Assembly (NCBI GenBank): GCA_003614675.1 | Contig: ML002232.1 | Span: 45,942 to 65,941 of the forward strand | Direction of reading: 5' to 3' | Length of the DNA: 20,000 nt | Origin: Dimargaris cristalligena | Taxonomy: Eukaryota | Shown here: positions 3,334 to 16,973 of the stretch, in pieces | Layout: each line of letters opens with the position of its first letter | Numbering within the stretch: the first letter of the stretch is position 1 | Notes under the pieces: model-generated | What the model was told of the DNA's origin: nothing | Databases searched by the model: none | Seen by the model: the letters and a program-made list of their open reading frames with translations, nothing else | Made by a program: the position numbers and the translations under genes

Positions 3334-4368
3334 ATGTATATCCCGCAAGTCCTTCAGCCCCGGGCGGGTATGTACATTACGAATGGCACTGACCCTATTG
3401 TGAGCTACGACCGCGAGTGGTTCACAACCACCAATATGGGTATGATAGCCTTCGCTGGTACCCTATTAATCCACATCAGTAACGCCATGGTGTCGACTCA
3501 ACTTAATTTCAAGCACCGGGCCCCGTCCATGTTCACGGCGGCCATGTTCCAGTCCGTCATTTCCATCGGCTGCCACCTCAGTCGCGTGTCCGACTACTTC
3601 TGGGAAACCAACTGCAATTTCAAACCCTACTTCAACAACTTCTGCTACTGGTTCTCCACCGCCGTCGTCATGGGGGTGTATATATGGCGTATTGCCCAAG
3701 CCTGTCAGTTCTTCAATTTCGCCCTTTCGATTGGTCTGATTCTACAGGTTCTTAAATTCGCGGGCGCCCTGGCCCTGACCCTCGAAATGACCATGGGTAA
3801 GGGCTACTTTCAAGAGTGTCATTTTGCCGCCCCGCCCCAGATGTTCACCTATCTGCTGGGGTCCGAACTGCTCTGCTACAGTGCGTTGATTGCGGCGTGG
3901 TTCGCCCTCATGGCTTACCAGCGATGGGGGAAAAAATCACATTGGCGAAAAGCGCTGTTCCGGCACGGGGGCATCTACACGGTGGTCGGGTGTAGCTTCT
4001 GTCTGATCCTGGAATGTATGATATTGACGGGCAATACGTTTGGCATTTTGGTCGACGCCATCATGCAAATCAAATGGTCAGCCGAGTCACTGGCGCTTAC
4101 CCGCCAGCTCCAAGCCTACCACCATGAGATCCAGGGTCTCAACGACCCCATGTCTACCTCGCACGAAGCTAGAAGGCCGCCCCGTCGTCACCATCGACCC
4201 CAGCGCTCGCAAATCACGGATTCGGACGGTATGATTACCGCCAATAGTGGCAGTACGGCCATTGCGTTGGGCTCTAGTAGGCAACACAGATCGACCAAGG
4301 ACGAAAAATCCTTCTCCATGGCCAGTTTCCCCATGTCGGCGTCTCCGGATATCTCCATCGAAATGTGA
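3334..4368 (+). CDS. Seven-transmembrane GPCR-like membrane protein, paralog B (344 aa, intronless)
   Basis: Clean ATG..TGA ORF. Aligns by eye with 493..1527 across the 7TM core (DPxVxYDRxWF, AGTLLIHISNA, LNFKHR, CxFKPYxNNFCY, GYFQECH, IYTVV, QxKWxxESxALT). Ser-rich C-tail. Confidence 0.88.
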   Translation: MYIPQVLQPRAGMYITNGTDPIVSYDREWFTTTNMGMIAFAGTLLIHISNAMVSTQLNFKHRAPSMFTAAMFQSVISIGCHLSRVSDYFWETNCNFKPYFNNFCYWFSTAVVMGVYIWRIAQACQFFNFALSIGLILQVLKFAGALALTLEMTMGKGYFQECHFAAPPQMFTYLLGSELLCYSALIAAWFALMAYQRWGKKSHWRKALFRHGGIYTVVGCSFCLILECMILTGNTFGILVDAIMQIKWSAESLALTRQLQAYHHEIQGLNDPMSTSHEARRPPRRHHRPQRSQITDSDGMITANSGSTAIALGSSRQHRSTKDEKSFSMASFPMSASPDISIEM

Positions 4369-5378: not shown

Positions 5379-5967
5379 TGGGGGGGTTCGGGATGGTGAA
5401 GAAAGGTGAGAAATGAACCGTTGCAAGTAATCGTTGCGGTTTGATAGGAAATAGGTTAAGAAAGCAATGAAGCGGTTGGATTTGGTTGAATCGTGCTAGT
5501 AAGAGACAGGTATGAATGGGCCGGAATTGACCAATGCAAAGACTATAGGGTGGCGTGTAAAATTCAGCGAAGCAATTCCACTGTGACAGAGTATGAGTAA
5601 TAGTAACCACCCCAACCATAAATGCTCCCACATCCCGGGATTTATAATGAGCATCTTAATATGAACACAACCGGAGTGAGTGGTCCAATACAGCCGCTAG
5701 GCCTGTGCTCATATATAAGCCAAATTAGATAGCCGTTGTCCACATTCTATTGCTAATTTCTCCAAATTGAATTTAGTCATATTTATATAAAAATAACTAT
5801 TGGTTACTGAATTCTTCATTAAAAAGAGTAATGGTAAAGCTGAATGTTAAATAGAGCGGGTATGCGTAGTGAATGACATGTCATAATCACACCCGTAGAT
5901 AAAATGCTACGCACCCGGCGGTGTATTGTCACTAAACATTTCAAGCACCGACTCTTCCCCAATTAGC

Positions 5968-6933
5968 TTAGTGCCCCCACCAACTCAGTTTCTTAGTTTG
6001 CAACGGCTCCAGCTGCTGTTGGGGCTTTGGTAGTGACTTCTGTTGCTGAAGTTTGCCGCCATTCATGGCCAAGGTTTCTTCCCGCATTTGATTAGCCAAC
6101 CGCATGGCCTGGGTCTCGGGCTGGCGGAACAAATGAAGGGCCTCGGTTTCAAGAACCGTATCGCGGTTATACGGCTGGGTCGGCAGTGTAGTGATATTTT
6201 CAATCTCTTTCGGGTCCCGCAGAATTCTTTCCAAGGTGGCCAAAGTTTCCGCGGAGCAAACGACATTCGGGTGGTCGTTCAGTTTAAACAGGGGGCTGGG
6301 AGTTTGGTTTCCCACCGACCCTTCTTCTTCCTCTCCCTTCCACTCCTCATCGTCGGACCAGGAAGTCGTGGGCGGGTCCGAGGGATCCATAGCAGAGGAA
6401 TTCGTTTTGAAACACTGAAGGAGGGCCTCGGGGTCCACATTAGCCTCTTTCAAGACCTCAAGGACATCGCCAAAGAGGTGGTTGATACTTTCGTACTCCT
6501 CGGCTTCTTGACGAAGGCGGGTGCGAAGGTCAACCACGGGGAAATCGGATTGGGCTTCCGTTTGAACGGCCATATCACGGTACAGCTTGCCGTTTCGGGA
6601 GGTGCTGGTGGTGAGATCTGAGGGCCCGAGTCCCTCGCTAAGGACACGACCAGCTGGTTCGGCGGGGACTACGGGGAGTTGAGTTTTTTTGCTCAGCGGG
6701 ACGTATGCCAATCGGATGAATTTCATTTCCGGATTAGTGGCCAATCGGGCCATAGAGGGCGGTAGCTCATTTTTGGGGATGAAGGGCAATAACTGCGAAC
6801 GCAAGTGGTATGCCGAGCCGGGGCCGTCGGCAATAGACGAAGCGGCACTTGGACTGATTTGATAGGTGACCAAAATTAATGCGGTCCCGACCAGCGAAAG
6901 TCGGGTTACCAAGGTCGATAACTTGCCAAGCAT
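5968..6933 (-). CDS. Hypothetical secreted protein, 321 aa, no recognised domain
   Basis: ATG at 6933 (MLGKLSTLVTRLSLVGTALILVTYQISPSAASS...) gives a signal-peptide-like N-terminus; the upstream ORF extension is AT-rich and UTR-like. Acidic middle region, Gln-rich C-terminus, and TATA-like sequence around 7082-7093. Confidence 0.75.
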   Translation of the reverse strand: MLGKLSTLVTRLSLVGTALILVTYQISPSAASSIADGPGSAYHLRSQLLPFIPKNELPPSMARLATNPEMKFIRLAYVPLSKKTQLPVVPAEPAGRVLSEGLGPSDLTTSTSRNGKLYRDMAVQTEAQSDFPVVDLRTRLRQEAEEYESINHLFGDVLEVLKEANVDPEALLQCFKTNSSAMDPSDPPTTSWSDDEEWKGEEEEGSVGNQTPSPLFKLNDHPNVVCSAETLATLERILRDPKEIENITTLPTQPYNRDTVLETEALHLFRQPETQAMRLANQMREETLAMNGGKLQQQKSLPKPQQQLEPLQTKKLSWWGH

Positions 6934-8865
6934 TTTCGAAGTTGGCAAGGAGCGGTATATTGGGGTGCAAATAATAATATAAAATAAACTTAACGTTAAA
7001 ACTGATGTTCGGAAATGCCAAATATAAATAATTAAAATATCATGAAGGTTGTGAATAATAAGGAAATACAAAAAAAGGAGCTTATAATATAAAGGTATTG
7101 CTAGACAGAATAATAAAAACCTGTGCTCTTTAAAGTCATCACGGAGGGAAGGTGGCTCTGCTATTGCTAGCCAGGGCGAAAGCGGTGGATTTATTTATGC
7201 GCGAAGGAAGCTGGCGGGGAATGGGCGCCAGTAACTATTATTGTTACATATGTGTAACTCGGGAGCTAAGCCACCACAGGACTTGGGGAAAAACGGCACA
7301 GAAAGATGAGAGGGGAGGCTCCACAACTATTCATACGTACTCCGCCGAGATTGGGCTAACCATTGGCCATTTTCCTGCGACGCCCATGAAGTACTAGGGC
7401 CCCGTTGCTTTAAGGTCAAGGTCGCCGATTAACTCAATTAGCGTGGTCTTTACATTTTCTGTTCTATTAATACGGATCCCCTGATTTGAGGTTGGGTTGC
7501 GCTGGGGGGAGGAAGCTGTGCACCGTTTACACTTGTGTGACATTTCACTCCAATATCCTCAGCATTGGCCTTATTTGCCAGCCACATTAGTCCACTCGGC
7601 TGATTCTTCATACCATTCTCTATCCTACTCTAGTGTTGTTAGATGGCTGAAAAGCAGTGTTTCCGGTATAGTCCCGTCCGACATGCCATGCTTGATTAAT
7701 GGCGGTTGATATCCCATCCCGCTTATAGTTAAGACGGCAATTATGTGTTTAGCCTATTTTTACCCTACCAATGTACACTGTGATAGTCACCATTTTTATC
7801 AATAATGCAATTAATACTTTGCAATTATTTTATCGTCGATACATTTCTAACAATTTCACCTATTATTTGCAGTCCTCTGTATCTACTTTACGACACAATG
7901 AGCCTTTCTTTAGTATTAGAATTGACAAAAAAAAATTCGAAATCTTGGAAAGAAAACACAACAGTTGTCTACTCATTGACACTCATATTTCGGAGCTATC
8001 ATTTATTTAAATGTAGTATTTTTGTTTTTTGCTAGCAATGCCAAACCCCCCAGCCACTGTAATTACCTATTCCCTATGGTCCTACCCAGGGTCTACCATG
8101 AGTTTCAGCGCTTCCGAATCCAGCCAGTCTAAGCCCTCGAAAAACCCAAAACTTGTTGGCTGAAAGTCCTCCATTGCGACGTTGAAACAGCCAGAGAAGG
8201 AAGACATGGGCGTTTCACAGTTCCCTAAACCTAATACGTCGGGGGCGGCGTCACCCAACAATACATATGCGTGCTGACATGTTCAAGATCCCCAAGTTCC
8301 CTATATTATTTAATTTTGCCACCCCTGTTAATATATACAGATTTAAAACCTGCTTGGTTACACTCTACCCTTAACAGGGGAAGGTTTGCGGAAGGTACAG
8401 CAATAGAAAAGTTGAGACTGATCGATTAAGTGGTCCCCACTAATTACTTCAACATCATAGTGAAATGCAAGTTCTTCACAGGTCCTGTGAGAACTAGCCC
8501 AAACCTCACTTGACTCTCATCTGTGGATAGTATTTATACCCCTTAGTTAACTTTGGACATGGCTCTGATATACCGCTAAAGTCATTTTATAAGTAACCTA
8601 TTCCCTTCCAACAATTGATCTAATATAATTCGATAGACTGTTGTGGAAATATGGGCCAAGCCCGTCCAGAAAAGGGTTAAATTCATATATCCATGAGCCA
8701 GAGAAAAAAACTTGAATTTGGCGTAAATTAGAACACTCGGAGCTTAAGATAATAATGGTAATAAAAATAATAATAGATTCATTGAAGTTCAAGCTAATAC
8801 TGAATAGCTAGTCCCGAACAATCCTACCCAGCTAATCATAACTACATGGCTGATTTAATTAACCA

Positions 8866-11539
8866 TTAAGGCTCTTTGTCATTGAGGCGTTCCGGAAGCT
8901 GCAAATAAAACGGCTGATTCGTAATGTGACTATTAACACTAGGCCGGTCCATGTTGTTAGGATGGGGGTCTTGGAAGGAATAGCCAGTACCCTGACTGGA
9001 AACTGGGCTCGGTCGAATCCAGGGGCCATTGGCATTGGATGGGACCGGCACGGGCATGGTGTATGCTCCGGTGAACTGTTCCACATTAGCAAAGGGAGGG
9101 ATAGTGGGGGCCTGATTCGACGGATACGGGGCATGATTAGGAGAATCATTGACGGGTATGACCTCACTGATCGATTCGGTGGCAGCCTGGTTCAAGGAGA
9201 TGGAATGAACGGGTACATTCGGAGCCGGTATGGTCCAGTGTGAGTTCAGGGAAGTCTGCATCGGCAGGTCCTGGTTAACAGGGGTGAAGTCTTCATTCAT
9301 ATCTTGTTGAGAAGGCACGAAGACGCTCTCGGTTTCTCTATTCCAAGGGGACTGAAATATATACTCAACTGGTAAAGGCGGCCCCTGGGTAGAGAGCTCG
9401 GTTTTGTCCTCAACAAAAGAGGAGTGGTCATTCTCGGCTACCGTGTTTTTCGGTGGTTGCAAGAAAGACTCAACCGGTAGAGCCTGCTCCTGGACAGAGA
9501 GCTCGGTTTTGTCCTGGACAGAAAGGGGACGGTCATTCTCGGTTGCCGTGGTCTTCAGCGGTTGCAAGAAAGCCTCGACCGATAAAGGCTGCTCCTGGAT
9601 AGAGTGCTCGGTTTTTTCCTCGACAACAGGGGGGCGGTCATTCTCGGATGCAGTGTTCTTAAGCGGTTGCAAGAAAGCCTCGAGTGACAAGTCCTGGTCA
9701 GGGGTAGCGGGTGTGCCTCGGTCTTGAACGAAAGACGTGGGGGTGCGCTTGAGCTGCTTGCTCCCGAATGGCTGCAGGAAAGACTCGACTGACATGCTAT
9801 GACTATCGGTGGACGCCATACCCCGATCCTGAACGAAAGAGGCGGAGTCGGAAATTACCTTGTTCGGAACGTGGGTCTTTTCCGCGTCCAAATAACTGTT
9901 AGTCCCTCTAAGCTGCTCTTCCTCTGCCAATAATTCATCAGGCTCGTTAAAATAAGTCACTTCGACTGGCGACTGGGATTGTTCTACGGGTACGCTATAA
10001 TGCCAGGATGAAATACCATTACCGTAATATATACATCGGCAATACCATATGGGTGTAGTTAAGTGGGTTAGATATAATTTACATGGCGATTCCATCGGTC
10101 CAATCTATGTGCACACTTTGTGGCAGGATGGGACATTGCTTTAGGTAGCGGGTGTTTTAGGGAAAGTTGAATCCTCTAAAATCGAAGCAACGTCGCGTAA
10201 TCCATCGGAGATACCCTTAAGGGTGCAATTAAATCGTCGGCAACCGCCAAGTGATAGCTACGCTGGTCTGAGTAAATTAGTACGTGTGGCAGAAGCCAAA
10301 ATTCAGTAGTACTTACCTGGAGGTCGAATCCTTCGTCGATTCGCTAACTTGACGAGGAGGAATGAAGCCGGTAACGACGGGCGAATTAAATCCCACATGC
10401 TTTCCATTATCGGCCGAATTGCTTACGGAGGTGTCCTGGGCAGTAGTTTTGGAGTGCAACGTGGGAGAGCAGGGCAGCGGGCGGCCATTATTCCAGGCAC
10501 CTTGAGTACCCACCGGTGGGATGGTCTCGTCGTTGTTGCCATCCGCGCGGTTTACCGATTCAGTAGGCGAGTAGTTCGAATCATTGAACTCCATGGATTG
10601 GGGCAGCACGCGCCCAATATCACTGCCATTCTCGGAGCTCGATGCAATCTCCTCCATATAGTCGGTGAGTTCCTTCTGCAGGTTATCCAGAGACGCAGTG
10701 GTCTGCTGATTATTAGGAACAGGGATAGAGGCTGGTATCTGATTAGAGGGGTGTACCTCCCCCTCCAAAGAGTTGGCTTGGAAAGAGGTCCGTCCGGCCG
10801 GGCTTTCGGCATCCATATCCGGCTCGGATTCGGTAGCGGTCTCGTCGAGATAGATTTCACCCTCCACCAAATTTGATTCCTCCTCCTCATCCTGGTCTTC
10901 CGCATCCATGGGCAACGTGGAAAGGAGGACGTTATCCTGGTCGTCCACCAGAGTCAGGTATCCTCGGCTTCTCTCCTGACCATTCTTATCGGTCTCCAGA
11001 ATACAAAAGCCGGCCTTGCAGCGGTACTGGCGCCCATTTTTGCTCAAAACGCCCGTCCATTCGATATGGTCCGAGGCCGATAGGACTTCTTCTTCTTCCT
11101 CCTCCTCCTTTTCCGTCGAGGGTTCGTCATCCTCGCCTTCTTCTTCTTCGGCCTGTGGATCGCTGGCTTCGGCCACGTTCTCGGATTCTTGAACTTCAGC
11201 GCGGATAGACTCGAAATCATCGGTTTGAATGGCCGCATCGATTCCTACAACAGCCTTGGCCTTAGGTTGGATGGACTCGGGCACCGATTCCTCAGACTCT
11301 GCCGAAGATGACGACGGGTCGGGGGTATCCGCGGGCAGCAAGGGCTGGTAGTCACCAAATCCCACTATATACAGATTGTTGACATCCGACGGCATGGCCT
11401 CCCCCAGCCAGATCTTGGCGTCCGCGGTGGCCAAGAACGGCATGAAGATTTTGTTGGAGGGAATAGAAGCGGCCGAGGCCACCTGGAGTAGGGCTAGGCC
11501 CACCAGACCAATTAGGATGCGGGGCGTGGAGGCAACCAT
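8866..11539 (-). CDS. Hypothetical secreted acidic repeat protein, about 783 aa, probably 2 exons (11539-10317, 9994-8866)
   Basis: Signal peptide MVASTPRILIGLVGLALLQVASA-ASIP from ATG 11539. The first ORF ends at a perfect donor CAG|GTAAGT (phase 2). The acceptor TATAG|C at 9995/9994 is also phase 2 and joins in frame to the long 8866..10095 ORF (1223+1129=2352 nt, divisible by 3). Both halves are acidic and low complexity. The join is inferred; a shorter isoform or two separate genes are alternatives. Confidence 0.65.
9245..9845 (-). repeat. Coding tandem repeat, 105-bp (35-aa) unit, about 5-6 degenerate copies
   Basis: GGTTGCAAGAAAG recurs at about 9455, 9560 and 9665, with variants at about 9770 and 9350 (105-bp spacing). 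Protein units: LSLEAFLQPLKNTASENDRPPVVEEKTEHSIQEQP, LSVEAFLQPLKTTATENDRPLSVQDKTELSVQEQA, LPVESFLQPPKNTVAENDHSSFVEDKTELSTQGPP. Confidence 0.92.
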
Positions 11540-13688: not shown

Positions 13689-16418
13689 CTAGTCACTCAT
13701 ATCCTCGATGGGGTCGTCCGAAAGGTCGCCGTGGGTGGGCTCGGCTAGGCCATCTAAAGGTAATTGAATAGACGCTGGTTGACTATCCATGAGATCTTCG
13801 GTACTACGGTCCTGGTCCGCCCAATCCTCGGCATCGGCGCACCGGGCTTCCCGGTTAGGCCGGGAACTAAACCGGCAAAGTTGATCCAGGTCCGCACAGA
13901 GTCGACCCAAGTCCCGTTCTACCGAAGGTAGAGGTGGTCTTGGTCGATGTAGCTGTGACTGGGTCTGCTGGATTCGGTTCTGTAGGACAGTATGCCAATA
14001 GGGGTACAGTTCCAGACAAGCGGTTTCGAGAGCTAGGGACGTTTTGGTTCCCCCGTAAGTCTCCTCGGCTGGAACACGCGTGCGCGCCTGGACCGTTTGG
14101 GCCACTGCTAGATTTTCCCGGCGCTGTTTAGCCACCGCCCAAAACTGCGGTTTACTCATCTGTAAGAGTCCCCCCACTCGCGGGGCGGGTCCGTCGGGTC
14201 CATCCGCGGGTGTACGCAGGGATTCCGCCAAACCCCGTACGGTGGTCAAGGCCTGGTAGGGACCACTGGTCATTTGGTGGGCCCAGCCTCCCTGCCCCAC
14301 CACCAACCCATCGGCATCGCTGAGCCGCTCACTCGCCAGGGCCGCGTCGTCGATATCCCCCGTAAAGGCCAGGTAGTTTTGGTGTAAAAAGAGGACAAAC
14401 AGGTCGTAGTCGACGGGTACGTGTTCCAGAATTGCTTCGGCCGGGGTTTCGGGTCTAGCGTCGCTTCCCGGAGATGTTGGGCGCCGCTTATTGTACAGGA
14501 CTTTACCCATGGCGTGGAACAAATCGAAACTGGATTCCCGGCCCCCTGATGGCCGCCCCGGTCGCGACCGCGATGATCCAGCAGATCCGGGCACCGGGGA
14601 CGAGGGTAGCGTGCGGCTAGTTAGTTGAAGCGTATTTAAGGCGTTTCGAATGTCACCGTGGCATTCCGCCACCACCATGGGCAAAACGGCCGATTCATTA
14701 AGTAACGGGCGGCGATTTTGGGACCATGGGTGGCAATGGCATTCGAGGGACCATATCCGTTTGAGGGCTTTAGTGAGGAGGGTCGGAGCAATGGGATTAA
14801 AGTTGATTCGCGTAACCAGGGGGGAGTCTAACACGTCTCTGGGGATGACCTGCCGGAAATTCTCGAGCGCCTCTCCAAAACTTCGTCCATTCCGCCCCGC
14901 CGGTCCGCCACTGGCCTCTTCCAATAAGCTATGGCGTGAAATGCACTCGCTGATGATTAGTACTAGGGGGAACGCACGCAATGGCCGGGGTGCAGTATAG
15001 TGACGCAGGCAGTCTTCGAAGACCCGTTTAGTAGCCGGTTGGGTCAAATTGGGGAAATCTTCAATGACGACTAACTGCTGGTTAGGCGGCTCGGGTGGCG
15101 TGGCGATGGGGGTAGCAATAGTAGCAGTTGGTGTGGCCATGGCCAGTGGGGTATAGCGGTCCGCTTTCCGAATGAACAGCTCGAATTTCCGAGCTAGGGA
15201 GTCGACTGCATGATGGTATAGGGGTTCGAAAAGGAAAGGGCCCCAGAAAATAGGCATCGTAAGTGTAATAATGGAAGCGGTAGAAAAATGAGATAGGGCG
15301 ATGGTATAGCTTAGTGGTACTGAATTGACTCAAATGCAGCGCTGCCGAAAAAACTCCGCAAGTACAATAAGTCCGTTTACCCAAGCCGAAGGGCGGTAAC
15401 GGAGTCAATTAAAGAGTGCCCTACGTAAGTGTAGATAATTACCTTCACCGGTGGCATACGATGTGTCATTGATATCTTGGGCCAAGTGTACGGGGTTGAT
15501 CCACTCCGATATCGGTATATCGAGCTGTTTAGCCACTAATCTGAGCGTGGTCGTTTTACCCACACCGGGCGGTCCAGTCAGAATCAGTATCCGTTTGAGC
15601 CAGGGCCGGGTACCTGAGGCCCTAAGTTCGACCAACGCCCCCTGTAGCCAATTCTGCACCTCAAGAATTTTACGCTTGTGCACCGCCAGATCCGTTACAT
15701 CTTGGGGGGCATACTTGTCTACCCAAAGTTCGGTGTCGGTCTTGGGGACGCCGTTGCCTTTGCCGCACCCGACCGGGGGGGATTCCAGATTAAGGGCGCG
15801 CGCGAAGAAATCCTGCGGGATCGACAGACTCCGGGACTGTAAACCAGCGGGATAGTTGGGCCGTGTAGGGGCCGACATTGCCAACGATGGCGACAGGGCG
15901 GACTCATCGGGGTTGAGCCCTATATTCCGAGGGGAATTGGATGGGCTGCTGAAGGCCCACTTGCTGCTAGTGATACTGGTTAAACGGGACCGGGTGGATT
16001 TAGCAACGGGTAATAAAATCGGGCGCTGAGTGGGTTTTTGTAGCCGGGCGGCGTCGGTGGTGACGGCTGGTTCCGAGAAATCCGCATCGTCGGAGCCGCC
16101 TCCTTCGACACTTTCATCGGCCGAACTGTCGGAGAGGATACTAATCACCGCCCGTGGTTTGGGACGAGTTCTTCGGGGCGGTGGGTCAGCGGAGTCTGCA
16201 GGTTCGTATGAAGAGTGGTCTTGGGATACCGACTTCGGTGCAAGGTCGGCTGGTGAAGTAGGGGGGGGTGGAGCCGTCGGGGTGGATTCGGAAGGATTGC
16301 GGGTTTGCGAGGGCTGCTCTTCAACTTTAGCTCGTTTTCGGGCTGGACTGGTTACCGTCGGACTTGGCTTATCCGTCACGACAGTGGACGGCCGTAGCCG
16401 GCGTTTACGCATTTGCAT
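13689..16418 (-). CDS. RAD17: Checkpoint clamp loader subunit Rad17 (S. cerevisiae Rad24), about 830 aa, 2 exons (16418-15443, 15205-13689)
   Basis: WVDKYAP..DLAVHKRKI, Walker A GPPGVGKTT, Rad17-type Walker B LVVIEDFP, INFNPIAPTLLTKAL, GDIRNALNTLQ, LFHAMGKVLYNKR, LFLHQNYL, and acidic tail DDPIEDMSD. Intron 15442-15206: GAAG|GTAATT ... TGCAG|TC, phase 1 on both sides. Confidence 0.95.
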
Positions 16419-16973
16419 GGCGGCTTGTAATGCCCAAGAAGAGGAACGAAAAACGAATAAGCAAGTCAAATAATAATAATGTGCCGGTAGGGAATGAACA
16501 AGGGGTCGGCACGTTTTTTTCCCACTGCGCACCGCCAGCAGCTAAGTTCTACCCTGGTTATGGGTAAACAGTGCCAGCGTGGAATGCGGAGGGCGTCGAA
16601 AAATAGTGTGGCACGACGTTCGGTTTAAAAATGGCCTGGCTGGAATCGGCAAAGAGGTTCCTCTCCCAGTCACATAAGTCTGGCAGTGGTTACGGACCAA
16701 CACCACGCCCAAGCTATATATACTTCCCACCTTTTCGCCTTTTATTGTACCCCCCCCCCCCTTCAGTCAGCCCCGTCCAAGTAGGCTCACAATAGCAGAA
16801 AGGAGAGAGTGTACGCTAAGTGGCGCAGTAGCAATTCCAACCCTCAAGCAGAGCAGTGGAAGCCTTTTGTCTAGCTAAAGCCCATTCACTTAACCAGACT
16901 CTTCTTCGCTGCCTTAGCAAGCTCTTCTGCTGTTAACTATATTATACAGTATTGTTCAGTCTTCGTTGTTCCA
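16419..16973. promoter_or_regulatory. Divergent (probably bidirectional) promoter region between RAD17 and SFR1
   Basis: 555 bp between two opposed start codons. Contains TATATATA at about 16715-16722 and a poly-C run at about 16750-16761. Confidence 0.5.

Follow-up and report, generated by a model that had tools for sequence, protein, structure and literature searches.

Two neighbouring genes on the reverse strand of a contig of Dimargaris cristalligena raise the question of whether a short peptide motif, present once in each of their products, marks proteins destined for another cell. The genes, referred to here as A and B, lie in a stretch of 20,000 nucleotides (nt) of assembly GCA_003614675.1 (contig ML002232.1, positions 45,942 to 65,941 of the forward strand), which we call the window. 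Each encoded protein carries one heptad that resembles the peptides bound by the dynein light chain LC8 (DYNLL, or Dyn2 in yeast). An earlier note on this DNA located both heptads exactly (DMAVQTE at 6576-6556, residue 120, and DAAIQTD at 11239-11219, residue 101) and read the proteins as a possible effector family of a parasitic fungus that dimerises on or hijacks host LC8. Of that reading, the parasitic fungus and the signal-peptide-bearing orphan neighbours stand, and the family finds no support. We put a probability of roughly 0.7 on the heptads being incidental, in lineage-specific secreted disordered proteins.

According to this incidental reading, the products of the two adjacent same-strand genes would be lineage-restricted and would pass into the secretory pathway. 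The hypha would release these acidic, largely disordered proteins to the outside or at the interface between parasite and host. The heptads would be chance matches in sequence rich in Q, T, D and E, and would never meet LC8.

Secretion was judged by a heuristic that combines Kyte-Doolittle hydropathy with the (-3,-1) rule. Both N-termini open with a basic n-region, continue into a hydrophobic core of 11-13 residues and end in a c-region rich in Ala and Ser. In protein A, K4 and R11 are followed by the core LSLVGTALILV and by a possible cleavage site after residue 31, between SAA and SS; the maximum over 9 amino acids (aa) is 2.78, and the best later 19-aa window reaches 0.54. In protein B, R7 is followed by the core ILIGLVGLALLQV and by a possible cleavage site after residue 24, between SAA and SI. 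Its 9-aa maximum is 2.84, (-3,-1) sites fall after residues 22-25, and the best later window reaches 0.64. No later membrane anchor or hydrophobic C-terminus of the glycosylphosphatidylinositol (GPI) type was detected in either protein (no later 19-aa window above 0.64). The earlier claim that both are secreted thus holds on this heuristic, with a single signal-peptide-like N-terminal segment in each and nothing resembling a transmembrane segment after it; a signal peptide without a transmembrane segment or GPI-type C-terminus is also what is looked for in secreted effectors. Since both proteins bear such a segment and no membrane anchor, they would not face the cytosol of the cell that makes them. 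LC8 clients share the cytosol or the nucleus with LC8, and the signal-peptide-like N-termini and missing anchors would place A and B in neither of these in the producing cell. Given a cleavable-looking signal peptide, no transmembrane segment, no GPI-type C-terminus and no confident fold, release outside the hypha or at the interface appears most likely. We regard the two proteins as most likely candidate effectors or interface/matrix proteins, in the generic sense only.

Both proteins are orphans, as had been supposed, and searches return the query itself and nothing else. For gene A, only self was found among 2205 candidates. For gene B, the product of its 408-codon open reading frame (ORF) had no relative at near lengths among 8000 scored candidates, in a search crowded by poly-Glu words, and the full-length protein retrieved only itself with phmmer from 1.84 billion representatives. 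Two metagenome scans yielded no relative among 269 and 598 pattern matches, respectively. No Pfam family scored above its cut-off in either protein; the sub-threshold matches Exog_C, DUF2968, DUF2275 and DAM-like-phage1 were rejected as far below theirs. The Atlas gave no usable match for either protein and the PDB none for protein B. A confident fold was also lacking in both: single-sequence AlphaFold2 (AF2) models have a mean predicted local distance difference test score (pLDDT) of 39.5 for A and 42.6 for B, and the Atlas model of A has a pLDDT of 0.40. No orthologue of either gene was found, the only other copy of gene B being an allele identical at 780 of 783 residues.

Gene A is a single ORF (Table 1), and a predicted protein of exactly this sequence has already been recorded. 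In its mature form the product carries a net charge of -12, two Cys and three N-glycosylation sequons. AF2 draws a low-confidence helix over residues 113-127, with pLDDT below 50 at the heptad. Residues 123-180 (6394-6567, reverse strand) gave the sole PDB match, chain 7zm7_P, a B14/NDUFA6-like subunit of complex I (E 0.012, 18 bits). The alignment places the IQT of that subunit opposite the VQT of the heptad and includes the run RTR[LI]RQE; residues 117-119 of protein A are an LYR tripeptide. We rejected an NDUFA6/Complex1_LYR-like origin of this region. The match is single and weak, and we judge it a chance one because Pfam does not back an LYR family (none at E<=10 for residues 105-200, none at E<=1 for the whole protein). 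An antisense ORF of 192 codons (6043-6621, forward strand) crosses the heptad region of gene A and probably arises as a side effect of sense-frame composition.

Gene B proved to be larger than the earlier note had taken it to be. The second ORF (10313-11539, reverse strand; 408 aa, P0002) ends at a stop codon that falls inside a GTAAGT donor site. A search with its residues 156-408 among longer proteins gave one match in 1039 candidates, a protein of 783 aa (P0004) recorded at NCBI from another assembly as 'hypothetical protein H4R33_000975 [Dimargaris cristalligena]'. Splicing the two predicted exons of Table 1 yields 783 aa, of which 780 are identical to H4R33_000975, so the protein of about 408 aa is really the product of two exons. 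The differing residues are 235, 769 and 778. Run X1 gave no matching sequence and run X4 only a piece of 34 nt. Contigs of run X3 cover 5900-10838, a span that does not reach heptad 2; they agree with the window at heptad 1 and show a single A>G difference, at 10636 in exon 1 of gene B. The records therefore include two or more alleles or isolates that differ slightly. The agreement with X3 is uninformative on constraint, since X3 may be the source sample.

The mature product of gene B has a net charge of -88. The heptad lies in sequence modelled at pLDDT 31-40 and is unchanged in P0004. The only moderately confident region is the small beta unit at residues ~160-190, for which blocks of 10 residues have pLDDT values of 66, 71 and 72, with strands modelled by AF2 at 163-167, 170-175 and 178-183. 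The tandem repeats of the second exon each open with a [SP][VL]E[SAY][FI][LF]Q core, which leads into a linker that is acidic or rich in T. At the DNA level, Tandem Repeats Finder reports a period of 105, 3.0 copies and 82% matches over 9373-9683. These 35-aa repeats stand out far more than the QT heptad does and are possibly the real functional module of the protein.

The family proposed in the earlier note finds no support at any level examined, similarity over the whole proteins, the flanks and the heptads being no greater than chance gives. BLASTP of protein A against protein B had a best E of 0.15, in an alignment away from the motif. Smith-Waterman scores as high as those observed were reached in 38 of 300 shuffles for the whole proteins, 217 of 500 for the mature N-terminal parts and 106 of 1000 for the motif +/-30. 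The heptad pair has a BLOSUM62 score of 24 and ranks 8th among 213,852 heptad pairs, and a pair scoring at least 24 was present in 286 of 300 shuffles. Among 30,976 real segment pairs drawn from A and B, 7.3% score at least as high as the 34 aa downstream of the heptads, and 69% at least as high as the 34 aa upstream. By contrast, the true tandem paralogues that the window also contains (493-1524 and 3334-4365) share 46% identity (E 6e-90). We rejected paralogy of the two proteins on the BLASTP, Smith-Waterman, heptad-pair and flank tests. The codons of the heptads are exactly as had been quoted; their similarity follows from the amino acids that the heptads share and adds nothing.

A more distant relationship could still be imagined, in which A and B are very old tandem duplicates of which selection kept only D-x-A-[VI]-Q-T-[DE] ... 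DF ... R.E..E.E. Rather than LC8, such a shared module would serve some other partner or a step of processing, either extracellular or within the secretory pathway. The two genes are adjacent and on the same strand, and their products share a layout: SAAS at the cleavage region, some 80-90 residues, the heptad, DF, and an acidic stretch with R.E..E.E. Shuffling of the whole proteins placed DF within 8 residues in 0.8% and 1.5% of cases; R.E..E.E fell within 32 residues in 0.1% and 0.07%. Tandem duplication occurs elsewhere in the window, as the paralogues just mentioned attest. We nonetheless consider this explanation unlikely. The pattern was defined after both sequences had been seen, and the tests for any similarity are non-significant. 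The statement that 'DF...R.E..E.E' follows both heptads is literally correct for protein B, with a spacing of 3 residues, and does not hold as written for protein A, in which DF (130) and R.E..E.E (141) are 9 residues apart. The sequence is also locally acid-rich, a property that uniform shuffles understate, and no third member appeared in the gene A, gene B or metagenome searches.

The organism itself lends interest to the idea of a delivered protein. Dimargaris cristalligena belongs to the Dimargaritales, in the Kickxellomycotina. Members of this order parasitize Mucoromycota and some Ascomycota, which they enter by means of an appressorium and a haustorium (PMC9866270), and D. cristalligena has been treated and sequenced as an obligate biotrophic mycoparasite (PMC6784888). 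Other assemblies of the order, of Dimargaris xerosporica, Dispira and Tieghemiomyces, are named in PMC9866270. The guess that the DNA came from a parasitic fungus was thus correct: this is an obligate haustorial mycoparasite with a host-penetrating stage (PMC9866270, PMC6784888), and the earlier note's own refuting condition, an organism that never interacts with a host, does not apply. Two genome papers, PMC6784888 among them, deal with proteases, carbohydrate-active enzymes and secondary metabolites; the words secreted, secretome and effector are all absent from that 2018 paper. In LC8 mimicry, a more specific form of the earlier note's proposal, effectors delivered through the haustorium would reach the cytosol of the host hypha, where the heptad would dock as a beta-strand into the groove of the host's LC8. 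The effector would then dimerise, or would compete with clients of the host light chain, for instance the dynein intermediate chain or Nup159. We know of nothing reported on host manipulation by haustorial mycoparasites of early-diverging fungi, nor of any route by which proteins are translocated out of Dimargaris haustoria, and the latter counts against the proposal.

How well the heptads would serve as LC8 sites depends on the definition used. The ELM class LIG_Dynein_DLC8_1 has the pattern [KR].TQT (PMC3125787), which matches nowhere in protein A (P0001) or in protein B (P0004), so the LC8-type label given to the heptads finds no backing there; at -3 they have M or A instead of Lys or Arg, and at -1 V or I instead of Thr. 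The natural metazoan LC8/DYNLL consensus is [D/S](-4) K(-3) X [T/V/I](-1) Q [T/V](+1) [D/E](+2) (PMC3078936, Rapali et al. 2011). Both heptads agree with it at five of the six specified positions (the Asp at -4, the Q at 0 and the T at +1, together with a beta-branched -1 residue and an acidic +2 residue), the missing one being K at -3. The consensus of fungal Dyn2 matters here because the host is a fungus. Derived from the Pac11 and Nup159 sites of yeast, it reads charged-X-G/S-(V/L/I)-Q-T-D/E; in the intermediate chains of yeast, position -2 is occupied by G, A or S (PMC3727929).

Several observations weigh against the incidental reading. Both heptads match [DEKR]x[GSA][VLI]QT[DE] and so fit the consensus of the yeast Pac11 and Nup159 sites, with an Ala at -2 that yeast intermediate chains also show (PMC3727929); a strict G/S at -2 is missed by this one position. 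Both obey the qualitative rules of LC8Pred: position -4 is Asp, position -2 is small, the acid at +2 breaks the strand and the anchor has no proline ahead of it (PMC6607443). All three VQT-anchored peptides in Table 2 of the same paper bound LC8. The heptads lie ~90 (A) and ~80 (B) residues from the predicted cleavage sites, both in low-confidence regions of the models, and the haustoria that the organism makes are a plausible delivery organ. The number of [DK]xx[TVI]QT[DE] matches expected per protein is 0.0028 for A and 0.0089 for B (52 and 184 of 20000 shuffles, respectively), with a joint probability of 2.5e-5; for the yeast consensus, the expectations are 0.0018 and 0.0046 and the joint probability is 8.4e-6. 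For a pattern fixed in advance, the local motif excess is real. The yeast fit, the five metazoan positions, the joint chance probabilities (8e-6 to 2.5e-5), the VQT peptides and the pairing of signal-peptide-like N-termini with an obligate haustorial lifestyle are also what speaks for LC8 mimicry.

Binding data temper what a match to such patterns is worth. In Table 2 of PMC6607443, 7 of the 19 high-scoring predicted peptides bound LC8. None of the three IQT-anchored peptides, the type found in protein B, bound human LC8, and a tobacco mosaic virus peptide containing DTSIQTE, which fits [DK]xx[TVI]QT[DE] exactly, was a non-binder. Prediction studies (PMC3078936, PMC6607443) limit their searches to intracellular disordered sequence and leave out proteins or segments that are secreted or extracellular, since the LC8 sites known so far are cytoplasmic and occur only in such intracellular sequence. 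AlphaFold is reported to predict LC8 sites well (PMC12057147). LC8 clients present the motif in accessible, intrinsically disordered sequence; both heptads are modelled with pLDDT values under 50, in single-sequence models that have low confidence over their whole length. Each protein has a single motif, as against five in Nup159 and two in Pac11 (PMC3727929), and no family relationship between A and B was detected. Among the papers listed by our literature searches, we found no LC8-binding effector of any fungus or oomycete, no cellular pathogen that mimics the LC8 motif and, for a fungus parasitising another fungus, no mimicry of a short linear motif.

The frequency of the motif has to be set against the way in which it was found. 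In the six-frame translation of the window, [DK]xx[TVI]QT[DE] has two matches, both of them the heptads, where 0.045 are expected (P for at least two, 0.001). For the yeast Dyn2 consensus, 0.032 are expected (P for at least two, 0.0005). The bare core [TVI]QT is not enriched in the window, with 11 occurrences seen and 11.7 expected. At a per-site rate of about 6e-6 to 1e-5, and for an assumed proteome of a few million residues, chance would yield a few tens of matches over the whole genome, with only a few of them in the secretome. The pair was picked from a scan of ~250,000 windows in which any linear motif was eligible, a multiplicity that is not exactly computable. At a P of 0.0005-0.001 per window, pairs of this kind are therefore expected to arise by chance somewhere in such a scan, many times. 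Post-hoc selection of this strength, with many alternative motif classes available, weighs heavily on LC8 mimicry, which we hold to be very improbable.

The weakest explanation, that the proteins are not secreted or the models are wrong (hydrophobic stretches that are no signal peptides, or other starts or exons, in which case the heptad could meet the parasite's own Dyn2, or genes that are unexpressed), draws on the heuristic nature of the signal-peptide calls, the purely predicted gene models, the lack of a branch-point-like CTRAY in the last 60 nt of the 322-nt gene B intron and the option of a shorter splice or read-through ending protein B near residue 408-411, and it is very improbable against long stop-free ORFs (321 and 408 codons) that both start from the first ATG with a classic signal-peptide layout, predicted proteins on record that agree (321 aa for gene A and the 783-aa P0004 of another assembly) and heptads that lie in the first or only exon regardless.

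Table 1. Features of genes A and B in the window (positions count from the first nucleotide of the window).
Feature	Position	Strand	Basis
Gene A, single-ORF coding sequence, 321-aa orphan protein (P0001)	5968..6933	-	ORF listing and translation
Gene A, signal-peptide-like N-terminus, residues 1-31	6841..6933	-	Kyte-Doolittle and (-3,-1) rule
Heptad 1, DMAVQTE, residues 120-126, Q at 124	6556..6576	-	Translation of gene A
Gene B, exon 1, residues 1-407 and 2 nt of codon 408	10317..11539	-	Spliced model against P0004; GC content 0.55/0.53 in exons
Gene B, predicted intron, 322 nt, GTAAGT...TATAG, GC content 0.43	9995..10316	-	Agreement with NCBI protein of other assembly
Gene B, exon 2, residues 408-783, five repeats then P/N/Q/S-rich tail	8866..9994	-	Spliced model
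Gene B, signal-peptide-like N-terminus, residues 1-24	11468..11539	-	Kyte-Doolittle and (-3,-1) rule
Heptad 2, DAAIQTD, residues 101-107, Q at 105, immediately ahead of strongly acidic stretch	11219..11239	-	Translation of exon 1
Gene B, small two-Cys beta unit (Cys174, Cys179), residues ~160-190	10970..11062	-	AF2 model
Gene B, five tandem 35-aa repeats, residues 475-650	9268..9795	-	Repeat starts 35 apart

The spacer between genes A and B (7000-8860) is AT-richer, with a GC content of ~0.41, and contains no ORF of at least 120 codons. Elsewhere in the window, the tandem paralogues occupy 493-1527 and 3334-4368 on the forward strand. They encode 344 aa each, with several long hydrophobic stretches that give them the look of multi-pass membrane proteins. 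Their identity of 46% extends over 267 residues, and neither matches a Pfam family at E<=0.01; they may represent an undescribed membrane-protein family of D. cristalligena. A Rad17/Rad24-type checkpoint clamp-loader gene (13689-16541, reverse strand) is split over two ORFs, with the Rad17 P-loop domain in 15405-16541 (E 1.5e-23) and the RAD24 helical bundle in 13689-15329 (E 4.4e-7). Presumably an intron or a frame change separates the two.

Were the heptads real ligands of LC8, they would open the delivery of proteins from one fungus into another to molecular study for the first time, and would be an instance in which motif mimicry targets a hub protein that ranks among the most conserved in eukaryotes. 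If the heptads are due to chance, as seems most likely, the locus is of modest value: it offers two secreted proteins that are clearly delimited and confined to one species, of which one is a repeat protein corrected to 783 aa, and a worked example of how readily a five-position linear motif arises twice in acidic, Q/T-rich sequence.

Among known LC8 and Dyn2 clients, yeast Pac11 and Nup159 are cytosolic and carry their sites in arrays beside self-association regions (PMC3727929), whereas A and B have one candidate site each behind a signal peptide. The Kd reported for the yeast sites is 0.6 uM for Pac11 pep2 and 13-18 uM for Nup159 (PMC3727929). Viral LC8-binding peptides, such as those of human papillomavirus E4 and rotavirus VP4, embody the same concept of a pathogen protein with a docking peptide for host LC8, and they bind in vitro (PMC6607443). 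Viral ligands are, however, made in the host cytosol, whereas the fungal proteins would first have two plasma membranes and two cell walls to pass. CCL2 and CCL7, both secreted chemokines, contain TQT peptides that bind LC8 in vitro (PMC6607443, Table 2); an LC8-competent sequence in a secreted protein is therefore not in itself evidence of delivery. CCL2 and CCL7 resemble A and B in having an LC8-type peptide inside a protein with a signal peptide. They differ in being folded animal chemokines, and they serve as a caution that a competent sequence need not be used.

Candidate secreted effectors of haustorial biotrophs are orphan proteins with a signal peptide and no Pfam domain, and they are typically small and cysteine-rich. 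A and B differ from these candidates in that the host is a fungus and in being large, very acidic and cysteine-poor. They resemble them in their signal-peptide-like N-termini, in belonging to no family, in being restricted to one species and in coming from a parasite that forms haustoria.

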